Position numbers and translations under genes: made by a program. Positions 41,943 to 64,000 of a stretch of DNA of 64,000 bases are shown one piece after another (positions within the stretch are counted from its first letter, which is position 1; every line of letters begins with the position of its first letter). The stretch comes from Streptosporangiaceae bacterium (GTDB taxonomy: Bacteria > Actinomycetota > Actinomycetes > Streptosporangiales > Streptosporangiaceae), in the NCBI GenBank assembly GCA_049675875.1, contig JBAUAR010000011.1, positions 2,081 to 66,080 on the forward strand. Direction: 5' to 3'. A model generated the notes under the pieces. The model saw nothing but the letters and a program-made list of their open reading frames with translations, was not told where the DNA came from and made no database searches.

Positions 41943-41984
41943 GGCAACCTCGCAGCGAGAGCGAATCAGCCCCACCCTGACGCG

Positions 41985-42028
41985 TCCGCAACCTGGCCGC
42001 AAGTCCGCCGCAAGTCGGCCACCAGCAC
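41985..42028 (+). promoter_or_regulatory. Four direct repeats at exact 11-bp spacing: candidate SARP binding site and promoter of the hemerythrin operon
   Basis: tCCGCAAcctg / gCCGCAAgtcc / gCCGCAAgtcg / gCCaCcAgcac start at 41985, 41996, 42007 and 42018. A possible -10 GATGCT lies at 42036-42041, 6 nt before GTG 42048. Confidence 0.5.
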
Positions 42029-42047
42029 GCTGGGCGATGCTCGGGGC

Positions 42048-42758: not shown

Positions 42759-42789
42759 TTACCCGTTTCGCTGGCCACGAGGAGAACAG

Positions 42790-49057: not shown

Positions 49058-49073
49058 TCGTTCGTGCCGCCAG

Positions 49074-49271
49074 TCGGCTCTCGCCGCCGCGCTGTTGGGA
49101 ATGTCGCACACCGATGCGAAAACGACGGCCGGGCTGATCAAGTTCAACACGTTCACGCACACCGCGACCACGCCCTACTACTTCACCCAGTGGCAGAACG
49201 GAAAGCTCGTCCAGGTGCAGCCACTCGCCCGTGGCGTCACCATCCAGTTGCCTACGGCGGGACTCAGCTAG
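49074..49271 (+). pseudogene. C-terminal remnant of a branched-chain-amino-acid-type ABC substrate-binding protein
   Basis: TTAGLIKFNTFTHTATTPYYFTQWQNGKLVQVQP resembles the C-terminus of LivK-type binding proteins (G-I-F-D...Y-V-Q-NGK-V). No N-terminal part. Confidence 0.35.
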
Positions 49272-49289
49272 CAGTCTGCTGCGGTCAGC

Positions 49290-50072
49290 GTGACTCGACC
49301 ACCAGGAGACTTCGCCATGGGGCAGCCCCTCATCACCGACGAGAATGGCATCCGCTGGATCACCCTGGACCGCCCGGAGATCCGCAACGCCCTGTACGTC
49401 CAGGACCTCACCCGCATCACCGAGGCTGTCACCGGCATCGGTGACAGCGTCAAGGCAATCATTGTGACCGGCAGCGGGGAACGCGCCTTCTCGGCGGGGA
49501 TGCACATCAGCACCTTCGCGGACGCCGCGCCCGAAGATGGCCGGGCGATCATCTCCAGCGTCCGCGACTGCATCGGCGCGATACGGCGAGTGCCGGTGCC
49601 GACAGTGGCGATGATCAACGGCTATTGCATCGGCGCTGGGTTCGAGATGGCACTCGCCTGCGACCTGCGAGTCGCTCACCCAGACGTCCGCCTCGGGCTG
49701 CCCGAAGTCAGACTCGGCATCCCTTCGGTAGTCGAGGCGGCACTGCTGCAGCAGTATGTCGGCCTGTCCAGGGCCAGGGAAATCATCCTCACCGGAGCCC
49801 TGTACCCGGTCACCGAGTTCGCCGCCCAGGGCCTGATCAACCGCACCGTCGAGCCGGCCCAGTTGCGCGCGGCCACACTCGAACTGCTCGGCTCGGTCAC
49901 CGCATGCACCCGTGAAGTCATCGCCGCGCAGAAAGGCCTGTTCGAGACCTGGCTCAACCACGGCCTGCAGAACAGCATCGACACCAGCGTCGACGTCTTC
50001 GCCGACATCTTCCGTGCGCCGGCCACCGCTGTGGCCATCGCGCACTACCAGCAATCCCGTGCGCGGGCCTGA
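49290..50072 (+). CDS. Enoyl-CoA hydratase/isomerase (crotonase) family protein
   Basis: ITLDRPEIRNAL, GSGERAFSAGMHI and INGYCIGAGFEMALACDLRVA. Confidence 0.85.
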   Translation: MTRPPGDFAMGQPLITDENGIRWITLDRPEIRNALYVQDLTRITEAVTGIGDSVKAIIVTGSGERAFSAGMHISTFADAAPEDGRAIISSVRDCIGAIRRVPVPTVAMINGYCIGAGFEMALACDLRVAHPDVRLGLPEVRLGIPSVVEAALLQQYVGLSRAREIILTGALYPVTEFAAQGLINRTVEPAQLRAATLELLGSVTACTREVIAAQKGLFETWLNHGLQNSIDTSVDVFADIFRAPATAVAIAHYQQSRARA

Positions 50073-50078
50073 GCACCG

Positions 50079-50831
50079 TCAGGTCATGCTGCCGGTAGCG
50101 CCCGCCGGCCCGGCCGCGCGGGATCCGGCAGCGAGGAATGCGGTTCCGAAGAACAACTCGGTCCAGCAGACGTCGGTCAGGTCTTCCTGCATGGCTGCGC
50201 GAATCGCCTCCCACGGACGGCGCATGATCCACTGATCGATCGAGGCGAAGGGCCGCACCATGGCGGTTCCGAGCTGCGCTAGCCACCCTGGCGTGTTGCC
50301 GGGAAGCTTGAGATCCAGCACGACCCAGTGTCCGCCGCCAGAAAGGGCCGCGGCGCCGTGGGCGATCACCGCTGCACACTCAGGCACCTGTGACATGGCG
50401 TAGGTGGACAGGATCGCGTCGACCTGGGTCGGGAATTCGAAGTCGACCGCGTCGGCTTGCACGAGGCTGATATTGCTCCAGCCGTTCGTCGCTATCCGAT
50501 CCTGGGCACGGGCGAGCATCGCGTCGGTCAGATCGACGCCGACGATCCGGCCGCTCGGACCGATCGCCTCCTCGAGCAGCGGGAAGTTCAGACCTGTGCC
50601 GCAGGCGATGTCGATGACGCTGTCACCCGCGCGCAGGCCGAGCGCTTGTACGGCCTGGAGGCGTTGTGCCCGCTGGGGATAACCGGGCGCGGGGTAGAGC
50701 CGGGAGGTGATGTCGTAATGCTTCGCCTTCTTGCGGTATGTCTCGATCAGGTGCTCGCGCGTACCGTCAAGCTGGCTCACGGTGTGCTCCTCGATCTCGG
50801 CACCTTCGCGGTAGGACCGCGCGCGATCCAT
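50079..50831 (-). CDS. Class I SAM-dependent methyltransferase (cluster gene)
   Basis: Motif I VIDIACGTGLNF and VGVDLTDAML. The start abuts the stop of the upstream SRPBCC gene (50831/50832). Confidence 0.85.
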   Translation of the reverse strand: MDRARSYREGAEIEEHTVSQLDGTREHLIETYRKKAKHYDITSRLYPAPGYPQRAQRLQAVQALGLRAGDSVIDIACGTGLNFPLLEEAIGPSGRIVGVDLTDAMLARAQDRIATNGWSNISLVQADAVDFEFPTQVDAILSTYAMSQVPECAAVIAHGAAALSGGGHWVVLDLKLPGNTPGWLAQLGTAMVRPFASIDQWIMRRPWEAIRAAMQEDLTDVCWTELFFGTAFLAAGSRAAGPAGATGSMT

Positions 50832-51296
50832 CTAGGACTCCGCGCTTACCCGGCTAGCGGACTCGACCGCAGCCTTGATCGCCACCATCTCCTGATCGCT
50901 TACGCGCTGAACTCTGCCTTTGAGGGTGCGCGGGACCGCGCGCATGATGCCCCCAAGGTCGACCTCAATCCACATCATGGCGTCGGTCCGCCCGTCATCC
51001 ACTGGCTCGAGTTCCATTGCCCAGCGTGCCGCGGAAGTGCCCATCGGCCCGGCGAACGCCACGTAGCGGGGCGCCTCGACAGCGGTCACCTGCTGGCTCC
51101 GGCCGCGAGTCAGCCCGAGTATTCCCTTCGCCCGCTGCTCCACCCGGGAGCCCGGCTGGAGCGCAGCTCCGCCGCGAACCCGGCATTCGAGAACCGTTGG
51201 CGCCCACTCCGGCCAGCGTCCGACGTCACAGACGTACGCCCACACGTCACGGACGCTGCTGGCGATTGTTATGCGGCTCTCGGTTCTGAATGTCAT
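50832..51296 (-). CDS. SRPBCC-superfamily (polyketide cyclase/dehydrase-like) ligand-binding protein
   Basis: ITIASSVRDVWAYVCDVGRWPEWAPTV is a typical SRPBCC N-terminus. About 150 aa. Confidence 0.75.
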   Translation of the reverse strand: MTFRTESRITIASSVRDVWAYVCDVGRWPEWAPTVLECRVRGGAALQPGSRVEQRAKGILGLTRGRSQQVTAVEAPRYVAFAGPMGTSAARWAMELEPVDDGRTDAMMWIEVDLGGIMRAVPRTLKGRVQRVSDQEMVAIKAAVESASRVSAES

Positions 51297-51414
51297 CGAG
51301 CGCACTTTGTCTTGATCACTTTTCAGCTGCATCAGGTCTCCAGCGACGCTCGAGTTAGCGTGAGCCACACCTGCGAGGCCACGTTTGGTTTCACGAGCCG
51401 AGGCGGCGGGTGGT

Positions 51415-52533
51415 TCACGCCCGACCGCTGGTCTCTTCAGGCTGGTTGTTCACCCCGACCGGCACAGGCTTACTGCGCCGGTGGGCGGTCAGTGCGTTCG
51501 CTATCTCGTGTGTGGTGTGTTCCCAGCCGCACAGGCTCGACCGCCGGTTTCGTGCGGCGACTCGCAGCCGGTGTCGGTGGCGCTCGTCGCCCAGCCAGTC
51601 CCCGATCGCGGCGGCGAGGGCAGCCGGATCGCCGGACGGAATCAGTTGACCGGGGCGGGTGCCATCGGCGTTGGAGCCGAGCGCCTCGGGCAGCCCACCG
51701 ACCGCGGCGGCTATGACGGGCAGGCCGTGGGCGAGGGCTTCGGTTACTGCCATGCCGTAGGTCTCCGAGCGGGACGGCGCGATGAGCAGGTCGGCAGTGG
51801 TGTACGCGTGGCTGAGCGCCGCGCCGGTCAGGACCCCGGTGAGCCGAACGCGGTCGCCGAAGCCGAGCCGAGTGATACGGGCTCGCAATTGGCCGGCGAA
51901 GTCCGGGTCGCGGTCGAGCGCTCCGGCCAGCACGCATTGCCAGTCCAGGTCACGCACCTCGGCGAGTGCCTCGACGAGGAGGTCCTGCCCCTTGTGGCGA
52001 CCGAGAGTTCCGACGCAGATCAGCTGACCGCGGACGGGCCGGGCGGGGGCAGCGACCCGATCGACGCCCGGCCGGGCGACGTGCACCCGGCAGGCCGGGA
52101 TCTCGTATCGGGTCAGGACCTGCTGGCGGGTCCAGTCGCTGGTAACGATCACGCCCGTGGCGCCGCGTAGCACGACTCGCTCGGAGCGCTCCGCGCTGGC
52201 GTCGTGGCGGATGCCGAGGGCGGTGGCCAGGGGCATGTGCAGGAGCACTGTCATGCGTATCCGGCCGGCGTGTGGCAGCAGCTGCGCTGCGGTCGGCGAG
52301 GCGATCAGTCCGTCGATCAGGGTGATCTCCCCGTCGGGGATGGCGGAGACGATCCGGGTCAGGTCGGCTCGGGCGTCCGAGTCGGGTACCGGCCACGCCG
52401 CGCCGACGGTCGCGACCAGCACCTCCCAGCCGGCCTCGGCCAGTCCCGCGCAGACCCGCCGGTCGTAGATGTTGCCGCCGGTGGGCTGACCGGGATTGTC
52501 GAAACCCTCGGGGACTACTACGTGGACCCGCAC
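51415..52533 (-). CDS. GT4-family glycosyltransferase (GT-B fold)
   Basis: GGNIYDRRV, and the C-terminal EX7E-type region SRSETYGMAVTEALAHGLPVIA. Confidence 0.85.
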   Translation of the reverse strand: MRVHVVVPEGFDNPGQPTGGNIYDRRVCAGLAEAGWEVLVATVGAAWPVPDSDARADLTRIVSAIPDGEITLIDGLIASPTAAQLLPHAGRIRMTVLLHMPLATALGIRHDASAERSERVVLRGATGVIVTSDWTRQQVLTRYEIPACRVHVARPGVDRVAAPARPVRGQLICVGTLGRHKGQDLLVEALAEVRDLDWQCVLAGALDRDPDFAGQLRARITRLGFGDRVRLTGVLTGAALSHAYTTADLLIAPSRSETYGMAVTEALAHGLPVIAAAVGGLPEALGSNADGTRPGQLIPSGDPAALAAAIGDWLGDERHRHRLRVAARNRRSSLCGWEHTTHEIANALTAHRRSKPVPVGVNNQPEETSGRA

Positions 52534-52646
52534 GATGCTCCCGCCGTCGAGAGCGGCTGCCGCACGGAGCCAGCCGCCAGCCTCCGGCCGATCTGAACTA
52601 CACCCGCCGCCGATCCGTCATACCTGACACAGCATGGTACGGAGAA

Positions 52647-53420
52647 GTGGTGGGCACGGTTCGACGGGATCAGCGAGCACCAACCTTGACGGCACTAGAG
52701 CAGGCACGGGCGGCCGCCTTCCCCGCGGGCGAGTATGTGGGCCAGGAGAGCTTCATGCGGGCGGCCGAGGTCCGCACGCTGGCGCACCGCGCCGGGGTCG
52801 GCCGCGGCGTCTCCGTGCTCGACTTGTGCTGCGGGGTGGCCGGCCCAGGTCGGATGATCACGGCGGAGTCGGGCTGCCGCTACCTGGGCGTTGATCACTC
52901 CGCCCCCGCGCTGGCCATCGCCCGGCAGCTGGCCTCGAACCTGACCTGCCGATTCGAGCAGGCTCACATCCCGCCGCTGCCCGAGGGCCGCTTTGAAGTA
53001 GTACTCCTGCTGGAGACGATGTTGGCGTTTCCCGACAAGGAAGCCTTGGCGGACGGGGTGGCGCGCGTGCTGGAAGTGGGCGGGCGGTTCGCCTTCACGG
53101 TCGAGGAAGGCCGGCCGCTGACCGAGCAGGAGCGAGCCCTGATGCCCGGCGCCGATACGGTCTGGCCCATTCAGCTGGCGAAATTGACAGCTGTGCTGCG
53201 CGAAGCGGGGCTGACCGTTACCTGGCGGCGTGAGGACAGCTCCTCCCATCAGGCAACGGCCGCAGCGCTGCTTCGCTGTTATCGAGCTGACTCACTCCGG
53301 ATCGCCGGCCAGATCGGGGCGCGGGCCACCGCCGACCTGATCACTTCGCACCAGCTCTGGAGCGACTGGATGGACAGCGGGCGGGTGCGCAAGTTCGCGA
53401 TGGTAGCCGAGAAGCAATGA
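52647..53420 (+). CDS. Class I SAM-dependent methyltransferase
   Basis: Motif I VLDLCCGVAGPG and LGVDHSAPAL. GTG start. Confidence 0.8.
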   Translation: MVGTVRRDQRAPTLTALEQARAAAFPAGEYVGQESFMRAAEVRTLAHRAGVGRGVSVLDLCCGVAGPGRMITAESGCRYLGVDHSAPALAIARQLASNLTCRFEQAHIPPLPEGRFEVVLLLETMLAFPDKEALADGVARVLEVGGRFAFTVEEGRPLTEQERALMPGADTVWPIQLAKLTAVLREAGLTVTWRREDSSSHQATAAALLRCYRADSLRIAGQIGARATADLITSHQLWSDWMDSGRVRKFAMVAEKQ

Positions 53421-54331
53421 CCGGCCTCGATGCCGCGTCGGCAACGTCCGGCTATGCCCGCTACCTGGCCGCGAAGACGACCGTGGATGACCAGGCGCTC
53501 AACCGGCAGGTGCTGGCCGAGCTGGGCCACCTGATGCCCGCGGGTGCGCCGCGGGTGCTCGAGGTGGGCGCCGGCCTCGGGACGATGGTGGCACGGCTGC
53601 TGGACTGGGGAGTCGTCGGCGCCGGCGAGTACGTCCTGCTCGATGCGGATCGGCAGCTGCTGGACTGCTCGCGGCGGTGGCTCTGCGATTGGGCGGCCAC
53701 GCGGGGTGTGCGCTGCGACCTGCTGCCGGATGGCCTGCGGCTGGGTGACCTGCGGGTACGCCTGGTGCACGCCGAGCTCGCGGGGTACCTGGAGGCCGGT
53801 CACGCGGAGCTGGCTGAGGTGCTGATCGCCAACGCCGTCCTGGACCTCGTGGACGTGCCGGCCGTGCTGCCCGGATTGCTACGGCTCCTTGTTCCCGGCG
53901 GCCTCTACTGGTTCACGATCAACTACGACGGCGAGAGCATCTTCGCCCCCGGCCACCTGCATGACGACCAGGTCATGCGGGCCTACCACCGCGACATGGA
54001 CGAGCGCATCCGCTACGGCCGGCCAGCGGGCGAAAGCCGCACGGGCCGCCGCCTGTTTCACCACCTGCGGGATGCGCGGGCGCCCGCGCTGGCGGCGGGG
54101 TCGTCGGACTGGGTCGTGTACCCGGCCCCGGATGGGAACTACCCGGCCGACGAGGCTTACTTTCTGGGCAGCATCCTTACTACGATCCGGGACGCATTGC
54201 GGAGTCGCCCGGACCGGGTGGAACCGGCGGACCTGGCCGACTGGCTGGCCGTGCGCCATCGCCAGCTGGCTGCAGGCGAGCTGGTCTACATCGCTCACCA
54301 GCTTGACTTCGTGGGCCGCTCGCCCGGCTAG
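53417..54331 (+). CDS. Class I SAM-dependent methyltransferase, second of a tandem pair
   Basis: Motif I VLEVGAGLGTM and LLDAD. ATGA overlap with the preceding methyltransferase. Confidence 0.75.
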   Translation: MTGLDAASATSGYARYLAAKTTVDDQALNRQVLAELGHLMPAGAPRVLEVGAGLGTMVARLLDWGVVGAGEYVLLDADRQLLDCSRRWLCDWAATRGVRCDLLPDGLRLGDLRVRLVHAELAGYLEAGHAELAEVLIANAVLDLVDVPAVLPGLLRLLVPGGLYWFTINYDGESIFAPGHLHDDQVMRAYHRDMDERIRYGRPAGESRTGRRLFHHLRDARAPALAAGSSDWVVYPAPDGNYPADEAYFLGSILTTIRDALRSRPDRVEPADLADWLAVRHRQLAAGELVYIAHQLDFVGRSPG

Positions 54332-54403
54332 CTCTCTGCCGCCGCACGGCGACGGACAGCAAGCCGACGGAGAACAGCACCGCGAACGTCAATGTCTCGG
54401 ATG

Positions 54404-56269
54404 TCAGCGACGCAAATCAGGATCTAGTCGCAGCGCTGCGATGCATGCCGCGGGCTCTCCGCTCAGGCTGCGCACCAGGACGGCGCTGCCCTCGCCGGAC
54501 ACCGGAATGTCGATGTCGCGCTGGCCGGCCGGCAGCACGACGTCCCTGACGGCTCTTCCGAGCTCAAGCTGCAACGTAGTCGCGGGGCCGGAGTACGAGA
54601 GCCGGATGATCCAGGCGTAACGGAAGACGTGCGCACTGAGCGGTATCCTCGTCGCCGCCGACCGTACCGGCCAGCATGTCCGTGAGCGGGCAGGCCGGAC
54701 GCTCGACGCGCCGACGTCGAGCGCCGGACGCAGTCTCCCCCGGCTGTCGAACATCATCAGGTTCGTGACGGCCCCGCTGGGAGCCGTCACGAAGCGGATC
54801 CCGGCACGTTCCGGCGCGAGCGGTCCGAGTACGCGTGACGTCTGCGTTACCGATCCCCGAAACCCGGCATACATCACGTACCAGGGAGTGGGCGCCGACA
54901 GAATCACGGTGCCGGGTCTCGCGCTAGCCAGCGCCGACCGGGCAGTGTCGATGTACGAGCGCGTCCTCGCGCTGGATGTGCTGCTGAGGTACGTGACCCC
55001 GGACCAGATCGAGCCCACCAGGAACGCTCCGGTCAGGGCGAACGCGCTCACCGCTAGTGGCCCCGAGCGCGGCCGTCTGATGCGGTAGGGATCCTGCTCG
55101 CCAATGACAGGCCAGAACGCAAGCCCGACACAGACAACGAGGACGGGTGCGGAATCGGCCAGGTAGTACGTGTCGGCGCCCAGCAGGCTGGCGGGTAGCT
55201 CGGTCAACCGCGAGATCGCGACCGGTCCGAAGTCAGCCAGCAGCAGCCATCCGGCCAGGATTAGCCAGGACCGCGGCGCATGCCGCCGGTACCACAGGCT
55301 CGCGCCGACGATGAGTCCAGCCAGCACCCAGGTGGCCTGGGTTAGTCCGGGAGTCTCGGCCGCGAAGCCGTAGTCGCCACCGGGCACGAACCAGTGCCAC
55401 GGTCCGCCGACTGCGGCCGGAACGAAGCTGACCCGGAGCATGGTCGCAGCCAGCGACAGCACGCTCGAGACGTCTCTCGGGTTGATCGGCTGCTGGGATG
55501 ATCTCTGCAGCTTGATCAGGAAGATGAGCACATACGCGGCGGTCAGCACTCCATAGATCGTCCAGGCTCGCCGGAAGCTCCGGAGGGTATGCCTGGCCGC
55601 AGCCGGCCAGCGGCCAGGCACAAGATATGCCGACGTCAGGGCGAAGAGCAGCAACGGCACCAGGACGCCCTGCACGTCGAAGAGCAGACCGACACCGAGC
55701 CAGATGGCTGCGGCGACGACATGACCGACACGACCAGAGCGGAGGTACCTGAGGTGGGAACAGGCTGCCGCCAGCATCGTCAACTGCAACGGCAGCCAGT
55801 CCGTCACAGTGGTCCAGAACGACAGCCCGGCCAGCGTCAGCGGCGTGAACAGGAAGATGGTCAGCGGGATCAGGATCGCCGGGCGGCTACCGAACAGGAT
55901 GAGGAGCAGCCGCAGCACCAGCACGCCTGCCGCCGCCAGCGCCGCGATGGTCACGATGGCGGCGAGCAGCCAGTCGTACGGCGACAGCCGGGTCAGCAGC
56001 CAGAACACGACCAGGCCGCCAGGCCGCAGATGGCCGCCACTGAAGCTGAACAAGTAGTTCAGGCTCAGCCCGTGCGACAGCGCACGATCCAGCAGCAGGA
56101 AGTCATCCTGCCGGAAATAGAAGCGCGAGATCAGGTACGCCTTCCAGGACAACTGGGCCACGATCAGCGCGACGGCCGCGAAGATGACGGGATTCCGGCG
56201 GACCCACCCGGCTGAGCCAGTGGCGGCACGCTGAACTGCCGCCGCAGGTAGCTGCCCTAGATCCGGCAC
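54404..56269 (-). CDS. Large polytopic membrane protein with C-terminal extracytoplasmic domain (GT-C-like glycosyltransferase candidate)
   Basis: About 12 TM helices. The first predicted loop carries FYFRQDDFLLLD, a DD motif as in GT-C enzymes. The 180-aa non-membrane C-terminus is unassigned. The family assignment is tentative. Confidence 0.55.
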   Translation of the reverse strand: MPDLGQLPAAAVQRAATGSAGWVRRNPVIFAAVALIVAQLSWKAYLISRFYFRQDDFLLLDRALSHGLSLNYLFSFSGGHLRPGGLVVFWLLTRLSPYDWLLAAIVTIAALAAAGVLVLRLLLILFGSRPAILIPLTIFLFTPLTLAGLSFWTTVTDWLPLQLTMLAAACSHLRYLRSGRVGHVVAAAIWLGVGLLFDVQGVLVPLLLFALTSAYLVPGRWPAAARHTLRSFRRAWTIYGVLTAAYVLIFLIKLQRSSQQPINPRDVSSVLSLAATMLRVSFVPAAVGGPWHWFVPGGDYGFAAETPGLTQATWVLAGLIVGASLWYRRHAPRSWLILAGWLLLADFGPVAISRLTELPASLLGADTYYLADSAPVLVVCVGLAFWPVIGEQDPYRIRRPRSGPLAVSAFALTGAFLVGSIWSGVTYLSSTSSARTRSYIDTARSALASARPGTVILSAPTPWYVMYAGFRGSVTQTSRVLGPLAPERAGIRFVTAPSGAVTNLMMFDSRGRLRPALDVGASSVRPARSRTCWPVRSAATRIPLSAHVFRYAWIIRLSYSGPATTLQLELGRAVRDVVLPAGQRDIDIPVSGEGSAVLVRSLSGEPAACIAALRLDPDLRR

Positions 56270-56354
56270 GGCCTGTAGCCTGCCACGGCCGCCAGCGCGC
56301 GCATCTTTGGGGCGGCGGGGGTCGTGGCAGGTGGCTGATACTGGCGGTCGTCTG

Positions 56355-57134
56355 TCATCGGCCCTCGAGCCCTAGGTCTGCGGGACCGGCGAGCGGGCCA
56401 GCGCGCAGGCGCGGCTCGGCGACGCGTTCACGTCCCCGCGAAACCAGATCGTGCCCGCCGCGCCGGGCCTTGGTGGCGAGGTAAGCGGCGTTGGCCCCGG
56501 TAAGGTGCAGCGCGGTCGGCACTTGCCTGGCGATCGTGATGCCCAGGCGGGCCAGCTGAGCGCTCTTGTCCGGGTTATTGCTCAGCAGCCGGATGCGGCT
56601 GGCGCCCAGCGCGTGCAGCATCTGGGCCGCGCTGGTGTAGTCGCGCTCGTCGGCTAGGTGGCCAAGCGCGAGATTGGCGTCGTAGGTATCCAGACCACCA
56701 TCTTGCAGCGCGTAGGCGTCGAGCTTGTCGTACAGTCCGATGCCGCGCCCTTCCTGGCGCAGATACAGCACATAGCCGCCGTGCTTGGTAATTCGCTCGA
56801 CCGCTTCGCGCAGTTGCGGGCCGCAGTCGCACCGCTGACTGCCGAATACATCACCGGTGAGGCACTCACTGTGCAGGCGTACCAGCGGCAGCACCGCCGC
56901 GGCGGGCCGGCCGAGTTCGAGGGCCAGGTGCGGCTGCGCGTCGGTCAGGCCGGTGAAGCTAACGACCGTGGCAATGGTTGAGTAGTCGTCAGCGAAACGC
57001 AGCGGGATGCGAATTCGGCGGCGGATCGCCGCCCTCGGGATTGCCTCGGTCACGACATGAGCCGTTCGGCCTCGCACCGGGTCGAGGGCACCGTCAGCGG
57101 CGCGCCGAGGCCGGTCACCGGGCTGGCCAGTCAA
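56355..57134 (-). CDS. GTP cyclohydrolase II
   Basis: [24 protein letters not shown] (Zn ligands), [29 protein letters not shown] and [13 protein letters not shown] start in the track is uncertain. Confidence 0.9.
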
Positions 57135-58156
57135 TCACGAGCGACCTCCAACGCCTGCGGCGCCGGATCGGGCCGCTTCGACTCGCCTGGTTGTCCCTGG
57201 TGGCGGCGGCGGCGAGCGGCGTCTCTCAGCAGCAGGCCGGCGCCCGGGGCAACCGCGGCCAGCATGAGTACCGCATACAGCGTGGTGACCGTGACCCCGG
57301 TGGCCGCGCCCAGCCCGGCTGCGGCGAAGGCCCAGGCGGCGGCTCCTTCCCTCAGCCCCCACCCGCCGATGCCGAGGGGGATCACCGTTGCAGTCTGGAC
57401 CACCATCAGCAGTGCGACCAGTTCACCCAGCGGTGCGGTGGACCCGGCAACCCGGGCCGCGACGACGAACGTGGCCGTGTGCCCGGCAACGACCAGCACC
57501 GAGGACAGCATGAGCTGGGGCCACACGTCTGCCGCCAGCAGCCCGCACCGCAGGTCTTCGGCAATGGCACGGGCTGCGCGGGCCAGCCGCGACCGACCGC
57601 GGCGAGCTGCGGCCCACACCACCAGCGCAGCGCACCCGGCTACACCCGCGAGACCTGCCAGGATGTACGGCAGCGCGGGCCGGACCGGCGAGGGCAGCGC
57701 CAGCAACACGACGGCGGTCACCACGGCCTGGATGATCTGACCGCACAGCCGTTCCCACGCCACCGAGCGCAGCCCCCGAGTCACGTCTCCAGCGCGCCGG
57801 CCGTGCGTGACCGCCCGGTGCACGTCGCCGAGAACGCCTCCGATGAGCACGGAGTTCAGGAACAGGGAACGGTAGTAGGCGCCGATCGCGCTCGGCAGGC
57901 CAATGGCGACGCCGAGTACCCGGGCGACGACCCGCCACCGCCAGGCCGAGCACGCCGTCGTCAGGGCAGTGAGCGTGACGGCGGCCACGACCGCCGGCCA
58001 GGTGACCGCGCCCAGCCCGGCTCTGAACGGCGCAGCGCCCAGCAGCCGGAAGAGAAACCACAGCACGGTGACGCCGACCGCCGGGCGCAACAAGGGCAGG
58101 CCCAGGCGGCGGACCACGGGACCGATCCCGGCCGCAACTGAGTACACGGACGCCAC
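57131..58156 (-). CDS. LPG-synthase-TM / flippase-like domain (UPF0104) membrane protein
   Basis: About 8 TM helices. Pattern [11 protein letters not shown]...[21 protein letters not shown] is typical of this family. The stop overlaps the GCH II start. Confidence 0.7.
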
Positions 58157-58302
58157 ACCGGGTTACACGGGCCCGCTGGACTCATAGTTCAACCGCCCGG
58201 CTGCGGCAGCGTAGCGGGACCGGGAGCGATGAACCAGCCCGACTGCTGTCCCGTTGTCCCTGTCAGGTATAGCGGCAGACGGCCAGCAAAGACGGAGGCG
58301 CG

Positions 58303-60702
58303 GTGCGTGCGATTCGCCCGGTGGACGAAGAGGCCGCGACTGAGAGCCCGGTAGACGACGGCGCGCTGCGTACGATTCGGCGCGCGGCAGTCATCGGCTT
58401 GCCCGCCTCGGCCGCCTTGCTCGGCGTCGTGTCTGCCACGGCTGGTCTCGGCGTGGCCGGCTGGATAGCGGGCCTGGCCACCGGCACAGCGGCGACGGCG
58501 CTGATTGCCACCGCCCGCAGCCGCAGCGACCAGCCGGCGATACTCCCGGCGGACTGGGTCACCCTGACCCGGGCGGTGTTGTGCGCCGGGGTCGCGGGCC
58601 TAGTTGCGGACTCCTTCGGCCGGCCCGTGTCGATCACAGCGATGGTCACCCTGGCCGCCGTCGCGCTGGCCCTCGACGCGGTGGACGGTCAGGTGGCCCG
58701 CCGGACCGGCACCGCCACCCCGCTGGGCGGCCGCCTCGACGGTGAGGTCGACGCCTTCCTCATCCTGCTGCTCAGCATCGCCGTGTCCCGGGACTACGGC
58801 AGCTGGGTGCTGATCATCGGCGCCGCTCGCTACGCGCTGCTGGTGGCTGGCTGGCTGATCCCGTGGCTGGCCGCACCGTTGCCGCCCCGGTACTGGCGCA
58901 AGGTCGTGGCCGCGGTCCAGGGCATCGTGCTCACCATCGCCGTATCCGGGGTGCTCGACCTCTTCACCGGGTTGATCGCGGTTGCTGCCGCTTTGCTGCT
59001 GCTGGCCGAGTCGTTCGGCCACGACGTGATCTGGCTGTACCGCACCGGCGTCGGGCCGCGCACTCGCCTGGCTCTGCAGCTGCCCATTGCCGTGCTTGCG
59101 ATCGCGCTCGTGTGGAGCGACCTCGTCGCGCCCGACCGTGCCTGGCTGTTCACCCCCGCCGCTTTTGTCCGCATCCCTCTGGAGGGGCTGGTCCTGGTTG
59201 CTGTGGCGCTGTTGCTGCCGCTCCGGCCGAGACGGATCGTGGCTGCCGTCGCTGGAATCCTGCTCAGCGTGCTCACCTTCGCCAACATCCTCAACATTGC
59301 GTTCTACGAATATGTCGATCGAGCGTTCAACCCGGTGTACGACTGGGGCAGCATCGGCTCGGCTCTGGGCGTGGTCCGCGACGAGATCGGCCCCAAGCGC
59401 ACAGACGTGGCGCTCGTCTTGCTCGGGCTCGCTCTCATCCTGCTCGTCGGCGCGATCACCGCAGCAACAGTTCACCTCACCACTGTCGCCGCCCGGCATC
59501 GCCGCGCCGCGTTTGGCGGTCTCGCTGGCCTCACAGCAGTCTGGGCGGTGTGTGCCGGCCTGTCCCTGCAATTCATCCCCGGATCCCCGATCGCCTCGAC
59601 CAGTGCTACCGGCCTCGCCGTCGCGCAGCTGCGTGCAACCCAGGCAGCGCTCGGCGACCAGCGCGTGTTCGAGCGGGCCATCCACGGCTCTGACCCCGAA
59701 GCCAGCGTCCCGGCCTCGGACCTGCTCACCGGATTGCGCGGCAAAGACGTCATCATCGCCTTCGTCGAGAGCTACGGACAGGTCTCGATCCAGGGCGCAA
59801 GTTTCTCCCCGGGCATCGACGCCGCCCTGCGCAAAGACAACGCATCGCTGGCTAGCGCAGGCTGGTCCACGCAGACCGCCTGGGTTGCCGCCCCGGGCTA
59901 TGGCGGGATCAGCCAGGAGGCCCACTCCACCCTGCAGTCGGGGCTGTGGGTTAACAGCCGGCAGCGGTATTCGGAGCTCGTAGCCAGCAGCCGGTTCACC
60001 CTCAGCGACGCCTTCGACAAGGCCGGCTGGCGCACCGTCAGCGACAGCCCCGCCACCGACGACGAAGACTGGCCGTCCGGCACGCAGTTCTACCACTTCG
60101 ACCAGCTGTACGACCGGACCAACGTCGGCTACCACGGCCCGGCATTCAGCTACGCCCCGATGCCCGACCAGTACATTCTGTCCGCGTTCCAGCGGATCGA
60201 ACTCGCCCCCGGCCATAAGCCCGTGATGGCCGAGATCGACACGGTCTCGTCGCACTCGCCCTGGGCCCCGTTGCCGGTCATGGTGCCGTGGAACAAGGTC
60301 GGCAACGGCTCGATATTCGACCCGATGCCCGCGCGCGGCGAGACCGCGCTCTCCGTCCTGGACAACGCCAGCAGGCAGCGCAAGGCCTATGCCACGTCGA
60401 TCGAGTACTCGCTGCAGGTCCTCACCTCATGGGTCACCGAGCTCAACGATCCCAACCTCGTGCTGATCCTGCTCGGCGACGAGCAGCCCGACACCCCCAT
60501 CACCAGCCCCGGGGCCAGTCACAACCTGCCGATCTCCATCATCGCCCGCGACCCGTCCGTGTTCCGGCAGATTGCCTCCTGGCACTGGCAGGACGGGCTG
60601 CTGCCCGGTCGGCACGCTCCGGTCGAGCGAATGAGCGCCTTCCGCAACCAGTTCCTGGGTTCCTTCAGCACGACCCAGTCCCAGGCAGCGTCGACCCATT
60701 GA
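58303..60702 (+). CDS. Fusion protein: CDP-alcohol phosphatidyltransferase + TM linker + alkaline-phosphatase-superfamily (LtaS/sulfatase-like) ectodomain
   Basis: DAVDGQVARRTGTATPLGGRLDGEVDAF fits D-x2-D-G-x2-A-R-x8-G-x3-D-x3-D. The C-terminal third has KDVIIAFVESYG, GYGGISQEAHSTLQSGL and DTVSSHSPW, resembling metal-binding, nucleophile and His motifs of LtaS/OpgB-type enzymes. Confidence 0.75.
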   Translation: MRAIRPVDEEAATESPVDDGALRTIRRAAVIGLPASAALLGVVSATAGLGVAGWIAGLATGTAATALIATARSRSDQPAILPADWVTLTRAVLCAGVAGLVADSFGRPVSITAMVTLAAVALALDAVDGQVARRTGTATPLGGRLDGEVDAFLILLLSIAVSRDYGSWVLIIGAARYALLVAGWLIPWLAAPLPPRYWRKVVAAVQGIVLTIAVSGVLDLFTGLIAVAAALLLLAESFGHDVIWLYRTGVGPRTRLALQLPIAVLAIALVWSDLVAPDRAWLFTPAAFVRIPLEGLVLVAVALLLPLRPRRIVAAVAGILLSVLTFANILNIAFYEYVDRAFNPVYDWGSIGSALGVVRDEIGPKRTDVALVLLGLALILLVGAITAATVHLTTVAARHRRAAFGGLAGLTAVWAVCAGLSLQFIPGSPIASTSATGLAVAQLRATQAALGDQRVFERAIHGSDPEASVPASDLLTGLRGKDVIIAFVESYGQVSIQGASFSPGIDAALRKDNASLASAGWSTQTAWVAAPGYGGISQEAHSTLQSGLWVNSRQRYSELVASSRFTLSDAFDKAGWRTVSDSPATDDEDWPSGTQFYHFDQLYDRTNVGYHGPAFSYAPMPDQYILSAFQRIELAPGHKPVMAEIDTVSSHSPWAPLPVMVPWNKVGNGSIFDPMPARGETALSVLDNASRQRKAYATSIEYSLQVLTSWVTELNDPNLVLILLGDEQPDTPITSPGASHNLPISIIARDPSVFRQIASWHWQDGLLPGRHAPVERMSAFRNQFLGSFSTTQSQAASTH

Positions 60703-60735
60703 CCCGCCGCACCGCACCCGCCACAGTGAGCGCTG

Positions 60736-61377
60736 ATGACACTGGGCTGGGATAACCCCACAGCAGATCCCACCACCACCGTCTTGCTGCGGCACGGCGA
60801 TACCGACCTGTCACCCGAACACCGCTTCAGCGGGCTTCGCGACGTCCCGCTGAGCGCTCACGGAACCCGGCAGGCGAAGGCGGCGGCTTGCCGGCTGGCC
60901 GCCGGTGCTCCGATCGACGCCGTGGTCAGCTCGCCGTTGCAGCGCGCCGTCGCCACCGCCGCCATCGCGGCCGGCGAACTGGGCCTGACCGCAGTCATCG
61001 ATGATGATCTCCGTGAAACCGACTTCGGCGACTGGGATGGCTTCACCCTGGCAGAAATCCAGGAGCGCTGGCCCGGAGCCGCGGCAGTCTGGCGACGCGA
61101 CCCCGAACAGGCCCCGCCGGGCGGGGAGAGCTTCGCCGACACCGCACACCGGGTAAACCGGGCCTGTGACCGGCTGCTGCGGGATCACGGCGGGCAGAAC
61201 GTGCTGGTGGTGAGTCACATTACCCCGATAAAGATCCTGTTGTGCCGCGCTCTCGGCGTCCCCCTCGGCACCCTTTACCGGCTGTATCTTGGCTCCGCCT
61301 GCATCAACGAGATCCAATGGCACGGCCGCGGGTTTGCTGCCGTCCATCGCGTTAATGACACCAGCCACCTTCCCTGA
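60736..61377 (+). CDS. Histidine phosphatase (phosphoglycerate mutase-like) family protein
   Basis: Has the RHG motif LLRHGDTDLS plus SSPLQRAVATA and VVSHITPIK. Confidence 0.85.
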   Translation: MTLGWDNPTADPTTTVLLRHGDTDLSPEHRFSGLRDVPLSAHGTRQAKAAACRLAAGAPIDAVVSSPLQRAVATAAIAAGELGLTAVIDDDLRETDFGDWDGFTLAEIQERWPGAAAVWRRDPEQAPPGGESFADTAHRVNRACDRLLRDHGGQNVLVVSHITPIKILLCRALGVPLGTLYRLYLGSACINEIQWHGRGFAAVHRVNDTSHLP

Positions 61378-61402
61378 CTCACGGCTGGCGTACGTGTCGG
61401 CG

Positions 61403-61783
61403 TCATTGGACACCTCCTAGTTCCTCGATGGCGAGCCGTAGCGCACGCAGCGCGTAGTAGGCGCGGGACTTCACCATGTCTGGCGCGATGTCCAGGGCAT
61501 CCGCAGCCTGTGCAACCGAGCTGCCGCGAAAGCAGCACTCTCGCAGCACGTCCAGATGCTCCTGCGTCAGCCGGCCTAACGCGGCGGCGACCAGGTGGTG
61601 GTTGACGAGCTGCTCGCTAGCTTCGGCGACTGGCTGCTCGGGGCGGCGCCCGGTTACGTCCTCGGGGCGTCGGCGCTGCTCGTGCAACTCGGGCAGCGAG
61701 TCCGCCTCGGGGCTGCCCGCTCGTCGCGCGGCAAGCCGCTCTGGTCGACGAGCGCGCGGCTCACCGGTCGGCTCGGTTGCCAT
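61403..61783 (-). CDS. Sigma-70 region-4-only protein (ECF sigma C-terminal half with low-complexity N-terminus)
   Basis: LGRLTQEHLDVLRECCFRGSSVAQAADALDIAPDMVKSRAYYALRALR is ECF region 4. No region 2 in this ORF or in any frame of the 205 nt upstream. Confidence 0.6.
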   Translation of the reverse strand: MATEPTGEPRARRPERLAARRAGSPEADSLPELHEQRRRPEDVTGRRPEQPVAEASEQLVNHHLVAAALGRLTQEHLDVLRECCFRGSSVAQAADALDIAPDMVKSRAYYALRALRLAIEELGGVQ

Positions 61784-61988
61784 CCCCGCCGCTACTCCAG
61801 TCCCGTTGTGCGCCTGGCGGCTGCGCCTCGTTCACCAGCATCTGCTCCGTCTCGGATTGCGTGACCTGGCTCGCGACAGGAATCGATGGTACCGCGGGCT
61901 GCGGTCGGAGGTCGGTCGGCCGAAGTCGGCGGCCGCGCACCTGGCCTCCCGCTACGAGGGCGTTAAGCCCAGCTTGTCCGGTAGAGCG

Positions 61989-62366
61989 TCAGCATCGTGC
62001 GTGATACCCGCCGAACGCGACGGGAGTTTCCCACACCCGCACTGCCAGTGACTCGCCGCCTGCGGCAGCGACGGTCGGCGAGAGGGTGTCATGCACCCAG
62101 CGGGCGAACACTTCGACTGTGACCGCCTCGGCCTCGGCTGGGCGTATCTCCTCCAGATTGCGGCCATCGACCTGGCTGGTGAGCTCGGTCAGCGCCGCTT
62201 CCAGTACATCCAGATCACAGACCATGCCCCGGCCGTCGAGTTGCTCCCGGTCCACCACAATGTCAATTCGGTAGTCATGATCATGCAGCTGCCCCTCTGG
62301 CCCGGGGAGTCCCGGCATGATATGGAAAGCACGCACGCTTCGGCTCAGCCCGACTTCACATGTCAC
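61989..62366 (-). CDS. 6-pyruvoyl-tetrahydropterin synthase / QueD-fold protein
   Basis: RAFHIMPG...EGQLHDHDYRIDIVV...GMVCDLDVLEAAL fits the PTPS/QueD pattern (AAH...HGH...DF..L). Probable GTG start at 62366; the longest ORF reaches 62399. Overlaps the upstream dehydrogenase stop. Confidence 0.75.
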   Translation of the reverse strand: MTCEVGLSRSVRAFHIMPGLPGPEGQLHDHDYRIDIVVDREQLDGRGMVCDLDVLEAALTELTSQVDGRNLEEIRPAEAEAVTVEVFARWVHDTLSPTVAAAGGESLAVRVWETPVAFGGYHARC

Positions 62367-63357
62367 CGGCAGCACTCCTGTCGTAGTCAAGAACGGCATG
62401 CATCAACCCGGGTATCCCCTCGTCCACAGCTTGGAACGCCTCGGCTGCCTGGCCGAACGCGAAGCGGTGAGTGCACAGCTGGGACAACGGTAGTTCGGCC
62501 AGCAGCTCAACGGTCTCCCGGATGCGCCGCGACCGCGTCCAGGTCCCAGACAGCCGGGCCGGCACCGTGGAGACCTGAGTACTGCGGATGATCAGACGCC
62601 GCCGGTGGAACGCGCCGCCGAGCGGCAGCACCACTGGTTTGGTGCCGAACCACGACGCGATCAATAGGGTTCCCTCGTGGGCCAGCATGTTCAACGCCAT
62701 CGGTGGCGCATCCGGGTTACCACTAGCGTCAATGACCAGTGGAACCTGCTCTTCCGCCAGTTCCTCCGGCGCTGCGGCGGTGGCGCCGAGGCTGTCGGCC
62801 AGGGCGCGGCGCCACGGCTGCGGCTCGGCAAGGACCGGCCGCCACCCGGAACGCTGCAACAGCAGGCTGGTCAGCAGCCCGAGCACACCGGCTCCGAGCA
62901 CGATGACACGGTCGCGATATCCGGTCCCGGCATCGAGCGTCACCTGCAGCGCCGTCTCGACCAGCGGGAACAAGGTTGCGGCGGCGGGATCGATGGCAGG
63001 CAACGGAATCAGGTCATCGGCCCGGGCCGCGAATACGTCCTGGTGCGGATGGAACGCGAAGACCGCCCGGCCGGACGCCGCTACTTCGCCGACACACGCA
63101 TACCCATAGGCGAAGGGATAGGAGAAGGTGCCGCCAAGAGCGTCGATCGTGTCGTCCAGCGCCAAGTCGGCAGGGACCTCGCCGCGGTACACCAGGCGCT
63201 CGGTGCCACCACTGATGCCAGAGCACAAGGTGCGCACAAGGACCTCGCCGGCCGCAGGCCGCGGTGCGGGCACTTCCCTGATATCCACGCAGCGCGGGGC
63301 GGCATGAAACAGTGCGCGGGCGGGCGAGGTTGTGTCCGTAACAGTGGATTCGGTCAT
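62356..63357 (-). CDS. Zinc-binding medium-chain dehydrogenase/reductase
   Basis: VLVRTLCSGISGGTERLVYRG, Rossmann VIVLGAGVLGL. ATG at 63357. The in-frame upstream extension to 63630 is an SDR remnant. Confidence 0.8.
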   Translation of the reverse strand: MTESTVTDTTSPARALFHAAPRCVDIREVPAPRPAAGEVLVRTLCSGISGGTERLVYRGEVPADLALDDTIDALGGTFSYPFAYGYACVGEVAASGRAVFAFHPHQDVFAARADDLIPLPAIDPAAATLFPLVETALQVTLDAGTGYRDRVIVLGAGVLGLLTSLLLQRSGWRPVLAEPQPWRRALADSLGATAAAPEELAEEQVPLVIDASGNPDAPPMALNMLAHEGTLLIASWFGTKPVVLPLGGAFHRRRLIIRSTQVSTVPARLSGTWTRSRRIRETVELLAELPLSQLCTHRFAFGQAAEAFQAVDEGIPGLMHAVLDYDRSAAGDM

Positions 63358-63767
63358 GCGCGGTTGAGCCTCCAGCGGTAGATCGTCGGTAGCGGCCGCC
63401 TGCGCGACAGCTCCCATGACGGCGTTATAGACGACGACGCCCGGTGCGCCAGTTCCGAGATAGAGCTCCCTCATCCGGTCGCCCAGGCCATCGGGATCGC
63501 TGGCATCGGCCACGATGGTGCTGATGCTGGCACCGGTATCGGCCAAGGTGCCCGCGAGGTTGCGGAGGCCGTCCGTGCTCCGCGCCACCAGGGTCACCCG
63601 GTAGCCGCCCACCGCGAAGCGACGTGCCACGGCCAGTCCCAGGCCAGTCCAAGGCCAGGCCCCGCGCCGACCAGTAGCAGGTGGCGGCCATCGACTGAGC
63701 CGGGACCCGCGACGTCGGCGATCGCGCCTTCTCCGTTGCCGGGCTCGCCTGCTCCCTCGGTGGGCAT
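63358..63767 (-). pseudogene. Short-chain dehydrogenase (SDR) remnant: frameshifted by an 11-nt tandem duplication and truncated after about 100 codons
   Basis: ATG 63767 with an AGGAAG RBS. LLLVGAGPGLGLA is followed by the inserted TGGGACTGGCC. The sequence then continues in another frame as VARRFAVGGYRVTLVARS...VVVYNAVMGA and runs into the dehydrogenase gene. Confidence 0.55.
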
Positions 63768-63896
63768 GGGTGCTTCCTTTCGCGTCGACCGCCTCGGAAA
63801 GCGGCTCGGGCTGGTGACTCTGTCGATCCCCTGACGTCGCGGAATCATTCAGTCTGGCAGGTCCTCCCCGGCTGCCCCCCTCGCAATGCCCCGCCG

Positions 63897-63937
63897 GTGC
63901 CCCTGGCGGGAATCGAACCCGCTCTTTCCGCTTTAGA
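63897..63937 (-). pseudogene. tRNA 3'-half fragment (anticodon loop to discriminator)
   Basis: The minus strand reads CUCUAAA-GCGGA-AAGA-GCGGG-UUCGAUU-CCCGC-CAGGGGC-A. No matching 5' acceptor, D-arm or 5' anticodon-stem strand lies upstream. An unrelated 7-bp hairpin sits at 63950-63966. Confidence 0.45.
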
Positions 63938-64000
63938 GGCCCGGCTACCAGCCGACCGGCGGTCGGCTCTCCGCCGGCCGGGCCTCGAGGTGCTCGGCCG

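Follow-up and report, generated by a model that had tools for sequence, protein, structure and literature searches.

Two proteins of Streptomyces coelicolor, SCO6650 and SCO6655, have to our knowledge been studied biochemically and structurally without being connected to a pathway. SCO6655 reportedly bears a Tyr-to-Met change, and its reaction is said to stop at a formylated pyrimidine; SCO6650 is said to lack zinc and PTPS activity and to retain a pterin-type binding site. A stretch of 64,000 nucleotides (G+C about 68%; hereafter the window) carries a cluster of 13 open reading frames (ORFs) that, as judged by sequence comparison, belongs to the same SCO6650/SCO6655-type cluster family. The source is a Streptosporangiaceae metagenome-assembled genome (MAG), and the largest product of the cluster, a 799-aa protein, is 100% identical to the NCBI entry of that name. 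This protein is a fusion, in which an N-terminal CDP-alcohol phosphatidyltransferase domain is followed by a predicted ectodomain of the LtaS/EptA type; it is encoded together with GTP cyclohydrolase II (GCH II), a PTPS-fold protein, an MDR-superfamily dehydrogenase, a GT4 glycosyltransferase and a UPF0104 protein. We propose, with a probability of roughly 45%, that the cluster makes an unusual phospholipid with a GTP-derived head group, which would be flipped and, in this lineage, would pass its phospho-head group to an envelope acceptor. An earlier note on this DNA, made from the letters alone, could match the gene set to no known pathway. This still stands in that the cluster is no member of any characterised pathway, its enzymes being of known kinds in an arrangement without a described counterpart, although the set does have homologues in the S. 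coelicolor cluster. Full-text searches covering SCO6648-6655, combinations of GCH II, PTPS and CDP-alcohol enzymes, and actinobacterial LtaS yielded no paper that assigns a function to the cluster.

The case for a single functional unit comes from the comparison with other Actinomycetota. By alignment of full-length fusion proteins, 80 loci were fetched from contigs representing one genome per species, and the 53 loci with full 10-kb flanks served as the species-level comparison set. Neighbours were counted by tblastn with the window proteins and with families discovered in the loci; since a caller based on GC3 misread several UPF0104 genes as antisense ORFs, the counts given here are those from tblastn. 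Three features were found. One is that most of the cluster accompanies the fusion gene, whose product is 45-86% identical to that of the window across the 53 genomes: UPF0104 is present in 50 of the 53 loci, GT4 in 47, a PTPS-fold gene of any type in 46, MDR in 42, GCH II or a RibD_C-type reductase in 42 (GCH II itself in 34), and the methyltransferase (MT) and SRPBCC genes in 39 (MT2), 31 (MT1), 30 (SRPBCC) and 24 (MT3). The genes flanking the cluster in the window occur in 0, 0, 0 and 2 of these loci, and chance juxtaposition is rejected on this ground. Another is the breadth of the carriers, which comprise Streptosporangiaceae-like MAGs, Micromonosporaceae, Jatrophihabitans, Geodermatophilus/Blastococcus (Geodermatophilaceae), Nocardioides/Kribbella (Nocardioidaceae), Frankiales, Solirubrobacterales and Gaiellales; at least about 600 actinobacterial genomes at species level carry the cluster, as does much of Streptomyces. 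The last feature is that the genes stay together although their order differs from lineage to lineage, which indicates functional coupling. The earlier note had taken soluble GTP chemistry and membrane machinery as one unit and had warned that the orthologues might prove to be scattered in related genomes; the neighbourhood survey found that they are not, and the unit is kept across the 53 genomes.

The 53 loci fall into a close clade of 20, including the window, and a distant clade of 33. In the close clade, the PTPS-fold gene is of the type found in the window (type a) in 19 of the 20 loci and occurs without RibD_C, and a histidine phosphatase gene is present in 18 loci (1 of 33 in the distant clade). 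In the distant clade, RibD_C is found in 26 loci, and in 25 it occurs together with another type of PTPS-fold gene. The absence of RibD, which the earlier note had pointed out, thus holds for the lineage of the window, where no RibD_C homologue was found anywhere in the 64,000 nucleotides, and fails for 26 of the 33 distant versions, which carry a RibD_C-type reductase beside GCH II.

The mutual position of three genes ties the membrane and soluble halves of the cluster directly. In 35 loci the order is invariant: UPF0104 immediately precedes GCH II on the same strand, with RibD_C between the two in the distant clade. The succession of GCH II and a RibD_C-type reductase is seen in 18 loci, and in L049 (6224-7807(+); the locus numbers are ours) both are parts of a single 527-aa protein, in a cluster that also has a type a PTPS-fold gene. 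Single in-frame ORFs combining LPG_synthase_TM with GTP_cyclohydro2 were found in two or three MAGs (L009:8050-9849(-) and L010:8150-10006(-), and an ORF in L004:8062-9876(-)), and these may encode membrane-tethered GCH II, whether as real fusions or as frameshift artefacts. These observations bear on the alternative that two independent modules lie side by side. In that case, a membrane module (the transferase/ectodomain fusion, UPF0104 and GT4) would make a lipid or glycolipid whose head group does not derive from GTP, and a soluble module (GCH II, RibD_C, the PTPS-fold protein, MDR and the methyltransferases) would make a free pterin-, lumazine- or flavin-like metabolite such as a pterin glycoside. 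Seven of the 53 loci, which hold the membrane genes alone, speak for such a division, as does the position of GT4, which groups with PTPS and MDR as a trio and not with the membrane genes; the succession from GCH through PTPS and a reductase to a glycosyltransferase also mirrors the cyanobacterial biopterin-glucoside pathway. Nevertheless, in 35 loci GCH II and RibD_C belong to one transcription unit with UPF0104, with which they form fusions in some MAGs, the co-occurrence survives the shuffling of gene order across orders and classes, and the stand-alone transferase of Streptomyces again adjoins MDR, PTPS and GT4, so that we consider two separate modules unlikely.

The Streptomyces relative is represented by locus L083, where the PTPS-fold protein shares 98% identity with SCO6650. 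The genes there are, in order, a stand-alone 261-aa CDP-OH_P_transf protein, MDR, PTPS, GT4, a methyltransferase-like gene, LPG_synthase_TM, a creatininase-family gene on the other strand, and GCH II; the CDP-OH transferase, MDR, PTPS-fold, GT4, UPF0104 and GCH II genes are all present in both this locus and the window. Intermediate forms, having both an SCO6650 orthologue and the fusion protein, are found in the 33 distant loci. The link to SCO6650 is drawn through the PTPS type of these distant clusters, which matches PDB entry 3D7J (SCO6650, annotated as an uncharacterized protein) at E 3.6e-61, and not through the window's own PTPS-fold protein, which is 27% identical to SCO6650 and gave no match to 3D7J at E <= 1e-3. 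The two versions differ in several respects. The Streptomyces transferase lacks the LtaS-like ectodomain that is fused to it in the window, and its GCH II has Met ('LRAMALQ') where the window has Tyr ('LDAYALQ'). The window has the other PTPS subtype, which keeps the zinc histidines, whereas the SCO6650 type has lost the zinc site, and it has in addition the histidine phosphatase, the MT1/SRPBCC pair and the GT-C gene. Since the Streptomyces transferase is stand-alone, the shared product is probably the lipid itself, with onward transfer as an elaboration.

The creatininase-family gene adjoins a divergent GCH II gene both in L083 (14119-14883(-)), where the Met is confirmed, and in L032 (about 6301-6984), where the GCH II copy is 48% identical to that of the window, and it was seen only beside GCH II of the SCO6655 type. 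The archaeal deformylase ArfB is a creatininase-family enzyme, and this gene may encode an ArfB-like deformylase. If what is said of SCO6655, SCO6650 and ArfB holds, all variants would converge on 2,5-diamino-6-ribosylamino-pyrimidinone 5'-phosphate or its reduced ribityl form.

The transferase part of the fusion protein carries the complete DxxDGxxARx8GxxxDxxxD motif (DAVDGQVARRTGTATPLGGRLDGEVD, residues 125-150), which is kept in 22 of 23 homologues, and scores 40.4 bits against a PF01066 cut-off of 22. All of its NCBIfam equivalog scores are far under the cut-offs, the best being that of archaetidylinositol phosphate synthase (E 3.8e-6), and the domain appears too divergent to be assigned as PgsA, PIPS, Pss, Pcs or Cls. 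Searches of the PDB gave weak matches only, with the 799-aa sequence to the transferase motif and with the family profile to CEPT/CPT and PssA (E about 3e-4). The family forms a large group of its own (4489 clusters at 50% identity, E <= 1e-3). Many homologues of about 540 aa consist of the C-terminal module alone, and the fusion is one of several arrangements. The weak PDB matches to CDP-choline and CDP-ethanolamine phosphotransferases are matches to enzymes that take CDP-alcohol donors, and the transferase family includes DIPPS-type enzymes. It may be asked whether the enzyme joins two soluble alcohols in the manner of di-myo-inositol-phosphate synthase, or takes its head group in CDP-activated form, so that a phosphodiester metabolite, soluble or exported, would result instead of a lipid. 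No gene for a cytidylyltransferase that could make a CDP-alcohol is present in the cluster, the relatives of the ectodomain consume phospholipid head groups, and the flippase homologue is constant; we regard such a product as very improbable.

The ectodomain gave no match to any sequence family, Sulfatase included, in the Pfam and NCBIfam scans or in the PDB sequence and profile searches, and it was seen only through predicted structure. In the AlphaFold2 (AF2) model of the 799-aa protein (pLDDT 83.8), a predicted alkaline-phosphatase-superfamily fold of the LtaS/EptA type follows the transmembrane (TM) helices, and by analogy it would lie outside the membrane. The top Foldseek matches are LtaP/LtaS structures (4uop, 4uor, 2w5r and 2w8d, E 4e-8), followed by MCR-1, BcsG and YejM; E-values range from 4e-8 to 3e-4, with TM-scores normalised to the target of about 0.5-0.6. 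LtaP and LtaS (lipoteichoic acid primase and synthase) and the phosphoethanolamine transferases MCR-1 and BcsG all transfer head groups of phospholipids. The LtaS/sulfatase-like ectodomain described in the earlier note is thus borne out as LtaS/EptA-like. E489, S537, SSH649-651 and D726 are conserved across the fusion-protein family, and residue 727, a His in most homologues, is a Glu in the clade of the window. By order and spacing, not by superposition, E489, S537, D726 and residue 727 may correspond to E255, T300, D475 and H476 of LtaS.

This resemblance raises the question of whether the cluster is the missing actinobacterial pathway for lipoteichoic acid (LTA)-type polymers, the GTP enzymes being incidental or regulatory. 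The PgsA-like domain would then make phosphatidylglycerophosphate, the histidine phosphatase would convert it to phosphatidylglycerol (PG), UPF0104 would flip the lipid, and the LtaS-like domain would polymerise or transfer glycerol phosphate onto a glycolipid made by GT4, with the GT-C protein glycosylating the chain. The best structural matches being LtaP/LtaS and the JGI label of the family, 'phosphatidylglycerophosphate synthase', both agree with this, and the GT4, flippase-like and GT-C genes parallel YpfP, LtaA and YfhO. It was also reported that actinobacterial genomes have no clear LtaS orthologue, though Thermobifida and Streptomyces make poly-glycerolphosphate LTA (PMC3196553). On the other hand, the presence of GCH II, RibD_C, the PTPS-fold protein and MDR with the membrane genes in 42-46 of 53 genomes would be left unexplained, as would the UPF0104-(RibD_C)-GCH II unit; the Streptomyces locus has no LtaS-like domain, yet Streptomyces makes LTA; and the phosphatase is confined to one clade. 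An LTA-type pathway is accordingly judged improbable.

The soluble enzymes were examined for residues that could indicate their reactions. GCH II is of the canonical type by family and catalytic residues, and its activity is presumed: it scores 184 bits with PF00925 (cut-off 23.3) and 247.7 with NF001591 (RibA; cut-off 148), the Cys triad for zinc is kept ('HSECLTGD...RCDCG'), and a Tyr ('DAYALQD', 'LDAYALQ') is present in the window and in the other 27 aligned cluster copies, one truncated ORF aside. We take this Tyr to be the equivalent of Tyr105 of the E. coli enzyme. In the PTPS-fold protein, H26 and H38-x-H40 align to the zinc histidines of QueD and all three are kept, while the catalytic Cys is replaced by Glu ('EGQLHDH' vs 'C(A)GRLHGH') and 'DHH' by 'DGR'. 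Its NCBIfam scores are under the cut-offs. A canonical PTPS or QueD identity was rejected, the catalytic Cys and the Asp-His dyad being missing. A Glu near the C-terminus is retained in both PTPS types ('WETP' and 'HESH'), and the corresponding residue in T-fold enzymes anchors the 2-amino-4-oxopyrimidine edge of the substrate. In the PTPS of P. falciparum, a Cys-to-Glu change alters the product (PMC2229834).

The family assignments of the earlier note were confirmed by the Pfam and NCBIfam scans and AF2 for all named proteins but one. The exception is the MDR protein, which had been called zinc-dependent. Its 'GISGGTE' aligns to 'SICGTD' of threonine dehydrogenases, which places Ser at the catalytic zinc Cys, and GYA stands at the expected GHE site (a position judged by eye); zinc dependence was rejected, since the catalytic zinc ligands are missing. 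The Rossmann motif 'GAGVLG' is present, and the relatives in the PDB are threonine dehydrogenase, L-arabinitol 4-dehydrogenase and ketose reductase; the protein is also related to BchC. The nearest solved relatives of GT4 are sucrose-phosphate synthase (SPS) and MshA (6kih, 7qsg/3c4q), which take polyol or sugar phosphates as acceptors, and GT4 forms a trio with PTPS and MDR in distant clusters. The histidine phosphatase resembles CobC and the C-terminal part of Rv2228c (NF005567, 251 bits, to the C-terminal part of the model; TIGR03162, alpha-ribazole phosphatase, 146 bits), and its scores are closest to those of alpha-ribazole-5'-phosphate phosphatases. On the membrane side, UPF0104 is homologous to the flippase region of MprF only (NF033480, 27 bits against a cut-off of 600) and has no synthase domain.

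We infer every catalytic step after GCH II, as well as the direction of the transferase reaction, from what is established, namely the families, motifs, folds and co-occurrence. GCH II would open GTP to 2,5-diamino-6-ribosylamino-4(3H)-pyrimidinone 5'-phosphate. The PTPS-fold protein and the zinc-less, polyol-type MDR might then alter the side chain with its sugar phosphate, or else effect closure of a pterin ring, with the RibD_C reductase joining at this stage in other lineages. The CobC-like phosphatase would take off a phosphate and the MshA/SPS-like GT4 would add a sugar. The N-terminal domain of the fusion protein would join the resulting polyol to CDP-diacylglycerol, both donor and acceptor being putative. 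The methyltransferases may decorate the product, with the SRPBCC protein as a lipid-binding partner, and UPF0104 would flip the lipid by analogy with MprF. Finally, Ser537 of the ectodomain would attack the phosphodiester, free diacylglycerol and move the phospho-head group to an extracytoplasmic acceptor, and the GT-C protein, as a lineage-specific addition, would glycosylate on the outer face. In agreement with the working hypothesis of the earlier note, the head group would be a pyrimidine or pterin, methylated and glycosylated, and would be exported.

Several points weigh against this route. GCH II is missing from 19 of the 53 clusters, and seven loci have the membrane genes without any soluble-module gene within 10 kb; as GCH II is dispensable in the cluster, the housekeeping RibA presumably can supply the precursor where it is missing. 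The PTPS-fold protein lacks the Cys-Asp-His triad and does not allow its reaction to be assigned, and the divergence of the CDP-OH domain bars the assignment of donor and acceptor. The Glu that replaces His in the Asp-His metal pair may mean that the ectodomain differs in activity in the clade of the window. A 1-nt error at the ATGA overlap could have produced the apparent UPF0104-GCH II fusions in long-read MAGs, as which we take L009, L010 and L004 from their MFD names. The steps after GCH II are not assignable from sequence.

A wider reading is more tentative, and we hold it as possible rather than probable: many Actinomycetota, Streptomyces included, would make a new class of lipid or envelope modification with a GTP-derived 2-aminopyrimidine- or pterin-polyol head group, formed without GCH I. 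After GCH II, the ribosyl chain would be reduced and then re-oxidised or rearranged by RibD_C, MDR and the T-fold protein. A possible product is a dihydroneopterin-phosphate-like alcohol, which would be attached to CDP-diacylglycerol and flipped, and in most lineages the cryptic LtaS-like domain would transfer the head group onward. Synthesis of riboflavin, folate, queuosine or toxoflavin was rejected, the required genes being missing; specifically, no deaminase, RibB, RibH or RibE was found among the 13 genes or among the recurrent neighbours in the related loci.

The remaining genes vary more between lineages. The 621-aa polytopic protein has no Pfam or NCBIfam match. Its AF2 model, built from 33 homologues (pLDDT 67), matches EmbA/B/C, STT3/PglB, ArnT and PMT in Foldseek (E 4e-6 to 5e-2, TM-score 0.3-0.4) and has a carbohydrate-binding-like beta-sandwich after the GT-C region. 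Q54-D55-D56-F57 is invariant among the homologues, and the GT-C-like DD loop noticed earlier coincides with D55-D56; with moderate confidence, the model points to a GT-C glycosyltransferase fold. The gene occurs in only 3 of the 53 loci, and it and the histidine phosphatase gene are lineage-specific accessories. An Acyl_transf_3 membrane acyltransferase takes its place in L002 (7102-8484(-)) and also in L004, L005, L007, L023, L027, L043, L045 and L068. This exchange suggests a surface product with alternative decorations, acylation or glycosylation. MT1 is always paired with the SRPBCC gene in related loci, and a possible equivalent of MT3 ('MT3b') was found in 17 distant loci and in Streptomyces. 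Of the three class I methyltransferases originally named, MT1 and MT2 are clear, and the third gave a weak match only (Table 1). An endonuclease/exonuclease/phosphatase-family protein with a signal-peptide-like N-terminus adjoins six distant clusters (L023, L029, L033, L047, L051 and L054) and might act on the product as a secreted phosphodiesterase.

Upstream of the fusion gene, the sequence GAACC-N16-CGTT was found, which is typical of promoters for extracytoplasmic function (ECF) sigma factors. It is the single match in the window, where 0.74 are expected, and is not significant alone. In the comparison set, 19 of the 53 loci, almost all belonging to the close clade, have it in the 300 bp that precede the fusion gene, mostly 60-110 bp from the start; the background rate is 0.022 per 300 bp. 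Its -35 and -10 elements do not vary, unlike the spacer (loci with the motif include L003, L004, L006, L009, L010, L013, L015, L016, L018, L020, L022, L025, L034, L057, L068 and L070). Some 45 nt before the motif (at about 58187-58195) there is another conserved block, GTTCAACCG. The thirteenth ORF, left unnamed in the earlier note, is an ECF sigma gene of which only region 4 is left, the sigma-2 region being deleted (it matches positions 90-174 of the 177 of NF007227). Full-length copies are present in L004, at the same position as in the window, and in L032, L059 and L079, and degenerate ones in several close relatives, so that the gene appears to be decaying repeatedly beside the cluster. 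The promoter motif and the adjoining sigma gene fit an envelope-related, stress-responsive operon.

All 13 ORFs were found at the coordinates and on the strands given before, and, the 621-aa protein aside, they were assigned to families by Pfam and NCBIfam scans with curated cut-offs (Table 1). The gene unit is 50079-63357, bounded by the enoyl-CoA hydratase gene on the left and an SDR remnant on the right. The range first proposed ran to 63767, and its last part, 63358-63767, is not part of the cluster and lies outside, at its edge: it is a truncated SDR pseudogene that is frameshifted near a short GGCCAGTCC duplication (about 63632-63650) and runs in frame into the MDR start. On the left side, a 343-aa ORF at 49023-50054(-) was rejected as a gene, the true gene there being the enoyl-CoA hydratase on the plus strand. 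The close junctions were as claimed at 50831/50832, where the MT1 start abuts the SRPBCC stop codon, at 53417-53420, where the MT3 start overlaps the MT2 stop (ATGA), and at 57131-57134, where the GCH II start overlaps the UPF0104 stop by 4 bp. The claimed overlap of PTPS and MDR at 62356-62366 (11 bp) holds if PTPS starts at GTG 62366, and it becomes 44 bp with the start at ATG 62399.

Table 1. Features of the cluster and its edges in the window (positions in the 64,000-nucleotide stretch)
Feature	Position	Strand	Evidence or remark
Enoyl-CoA hydratase, left neighbour	49290-50072	+	outside the unit
MT1, class I S-adenosylmethionine (SAM) methyltransferase, UbiE/ArsM-like	50079-50831	-	PF13649 E 2.7e-16
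SRPBCC/START-like ligand-binding protein	50832-51368	-	PF10604 E 1.1e-15
GT4 glycosyltransferase	51415-52533	-	PF00534 E 3.9e-31
MT2, class I SAM methyltransferase	52647-53420	+	PF13649 E 3e-11
MT3, divergent methyltransferase-like	53417-54331	+	weak PF08242 E 1.5e-3, under curated cut-off
621-aa polytopic protein, predicted GT-C fold, C-terminal beta-sandwich	54404-56269	-	AF2 model and Foldseek
GCH II, canonical type	56355-57134	-	PF00925 E 1.9e-54; NF001591 247.7 bits
UPF0104/LPG_synthase_TM, 341 aa	57131-58156	-	PF03706 E 4.3e-27
ECF-sigma-type promoter motif GAACC-N16-CGTT	58231-58255	+	48 bp upstream of fusion gene
799-aa fusion protein	58303-60702	+	PF01066 E 5e-10; ectodomain by AF2/Foldseek
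CDP-alcohol phosphatidyltransferase part of fusion gene	~58549-58989	+	N-terminal; further TM helices after it
Predicted LtaS/EptA-type alkaline-phosphatase-superfamily ectodomain of fusion gene	~59710-60702	+	C-terminal
Histidine phosphatase, branch 1	60736-61377	+	PF00300 (His_Phos_1) E 4.6e-59
ECF sigma remnant	61403-61783	-	NF007227 partial match
PTPS/QueD-fold (T-fold) protein, type a	61989-62399	-	PF01242 E 2.4e-20
MDR-superfamily dehydrogenase	62356-63357	-	TIGR01202 E 1.5e-22 (under curated cut-off); PF00107
Truncated SDR pseudogene remnant	63358-63767	-	N-terminal ~95-130 aa only; frameshifted

No Rfam riboswitch or other RNA family was found above threshold in the window, and hence no clue pointing to FMN, THF or preQ1, and ARAGORN detected no tRNA there. 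Weak sub-threshold Rfam matches (tmRNA-like, E 0.004) with a T-arm-like GGGAATCGAACCC stretch were noticed at 63858-63940, which may be a tRNA fragment at the window edge. Elsewhere in the window there are two paralogous glycoside hydrolases of GH15/trehalase-like type (11041-12939(+) and 47234-49057(+)), which share 38% identity and are separated by 35 kb; the one just upstream of the cluster is kept with it in only 2 of the 53 loci. A 1273-aa SARP/AfsR-type regulator (Trans_reg_C, BTAD, AAA_16; 38646-42467(-)) is found near an aromatic-ring hydroxylase (34988-36829), an alpha/beta hydrolase (36624-37712) and an ABC transporter (42673-43806), and this region may be a small secondary-metabolite locus.

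If the proposed reading is true, a nucleotide-derived head group would be added to bacterial phospholipid chemistry, and a function would be given to a cluster of at least about 600 species-level actinobacterial genomes and much of Streptomyces, with an explanation for the orphan proteins SCO6650 and SCO6655. It would also place an LtaS-like head-group transferase in a phylum reported to be without clear LtaS orthologues (PMC3196553). A GTP-derived head group would surprise specialists in lipids and the cell envelope. Cultivable carriers are at hand in S. coelicolor and in isolates of Kribbella, Nocardioides, Geodermatophilus and Blastococcus, and the proposal is directly testable in them by lipidomics.

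The proposed route has counterparts among known systems, from which it also departs. With the archaeal and fungal early riboflavin/F420 route, the cluster family shares GCH II followed by a RibD_C-type reductase, and a creatininase-family gene beside the Met-variant GCH II; unlike in that route, the enzymes are embedded in a membrane-lipid cluster. The pterin-glycoside route has the same order of enzyme types (cyclohydrolase, T-fold PTPS-like protein, dehydrogenase and GT-B glycosyltransferase), whereas here the cyclohydrolase is GCH II and not GCH I, the PTPS-fold protein is without the catalytic Cys, and the dehydrogenase is MDR and not SDR. With PgsA and phosphatidylinositol-phosphate synthase, the fusion protein has the complete CDP-alcohol motif in common, although it scores far under every curated cut-off; a polyol-phosphate acceptor with subsequent dephosphorylation would parallel the conversion of phosphatidylglycerophosphate to PG and of phosphatidylinositol phosphate to phosphatidylinositol. 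MprF shares PF03706 (above the gathering score) and the proposed role of translocating a phospholipid with a modified head group, and UPF0104 differs from it in having no aminoacyl-PG synthase domain. Finally, LtaS/LtaP, EptA/MCR-1 and BcsG likewise have a membrane-anchored ectodomain of the alkaline phosphatase superfamily, with Glu, Ser/Thr, His and Asp positions that are putatively equivalent, and the analogy would be that a phospho-alcohol head group is taken from a phospholipid and passed on. The window ectodomain differs from them in having Ser, not Thr, at the nucleophile position and Glu at His727 in its clade, and, uniquely, it is joined in one protein to the enzyme expected to produce its lipid substrate.

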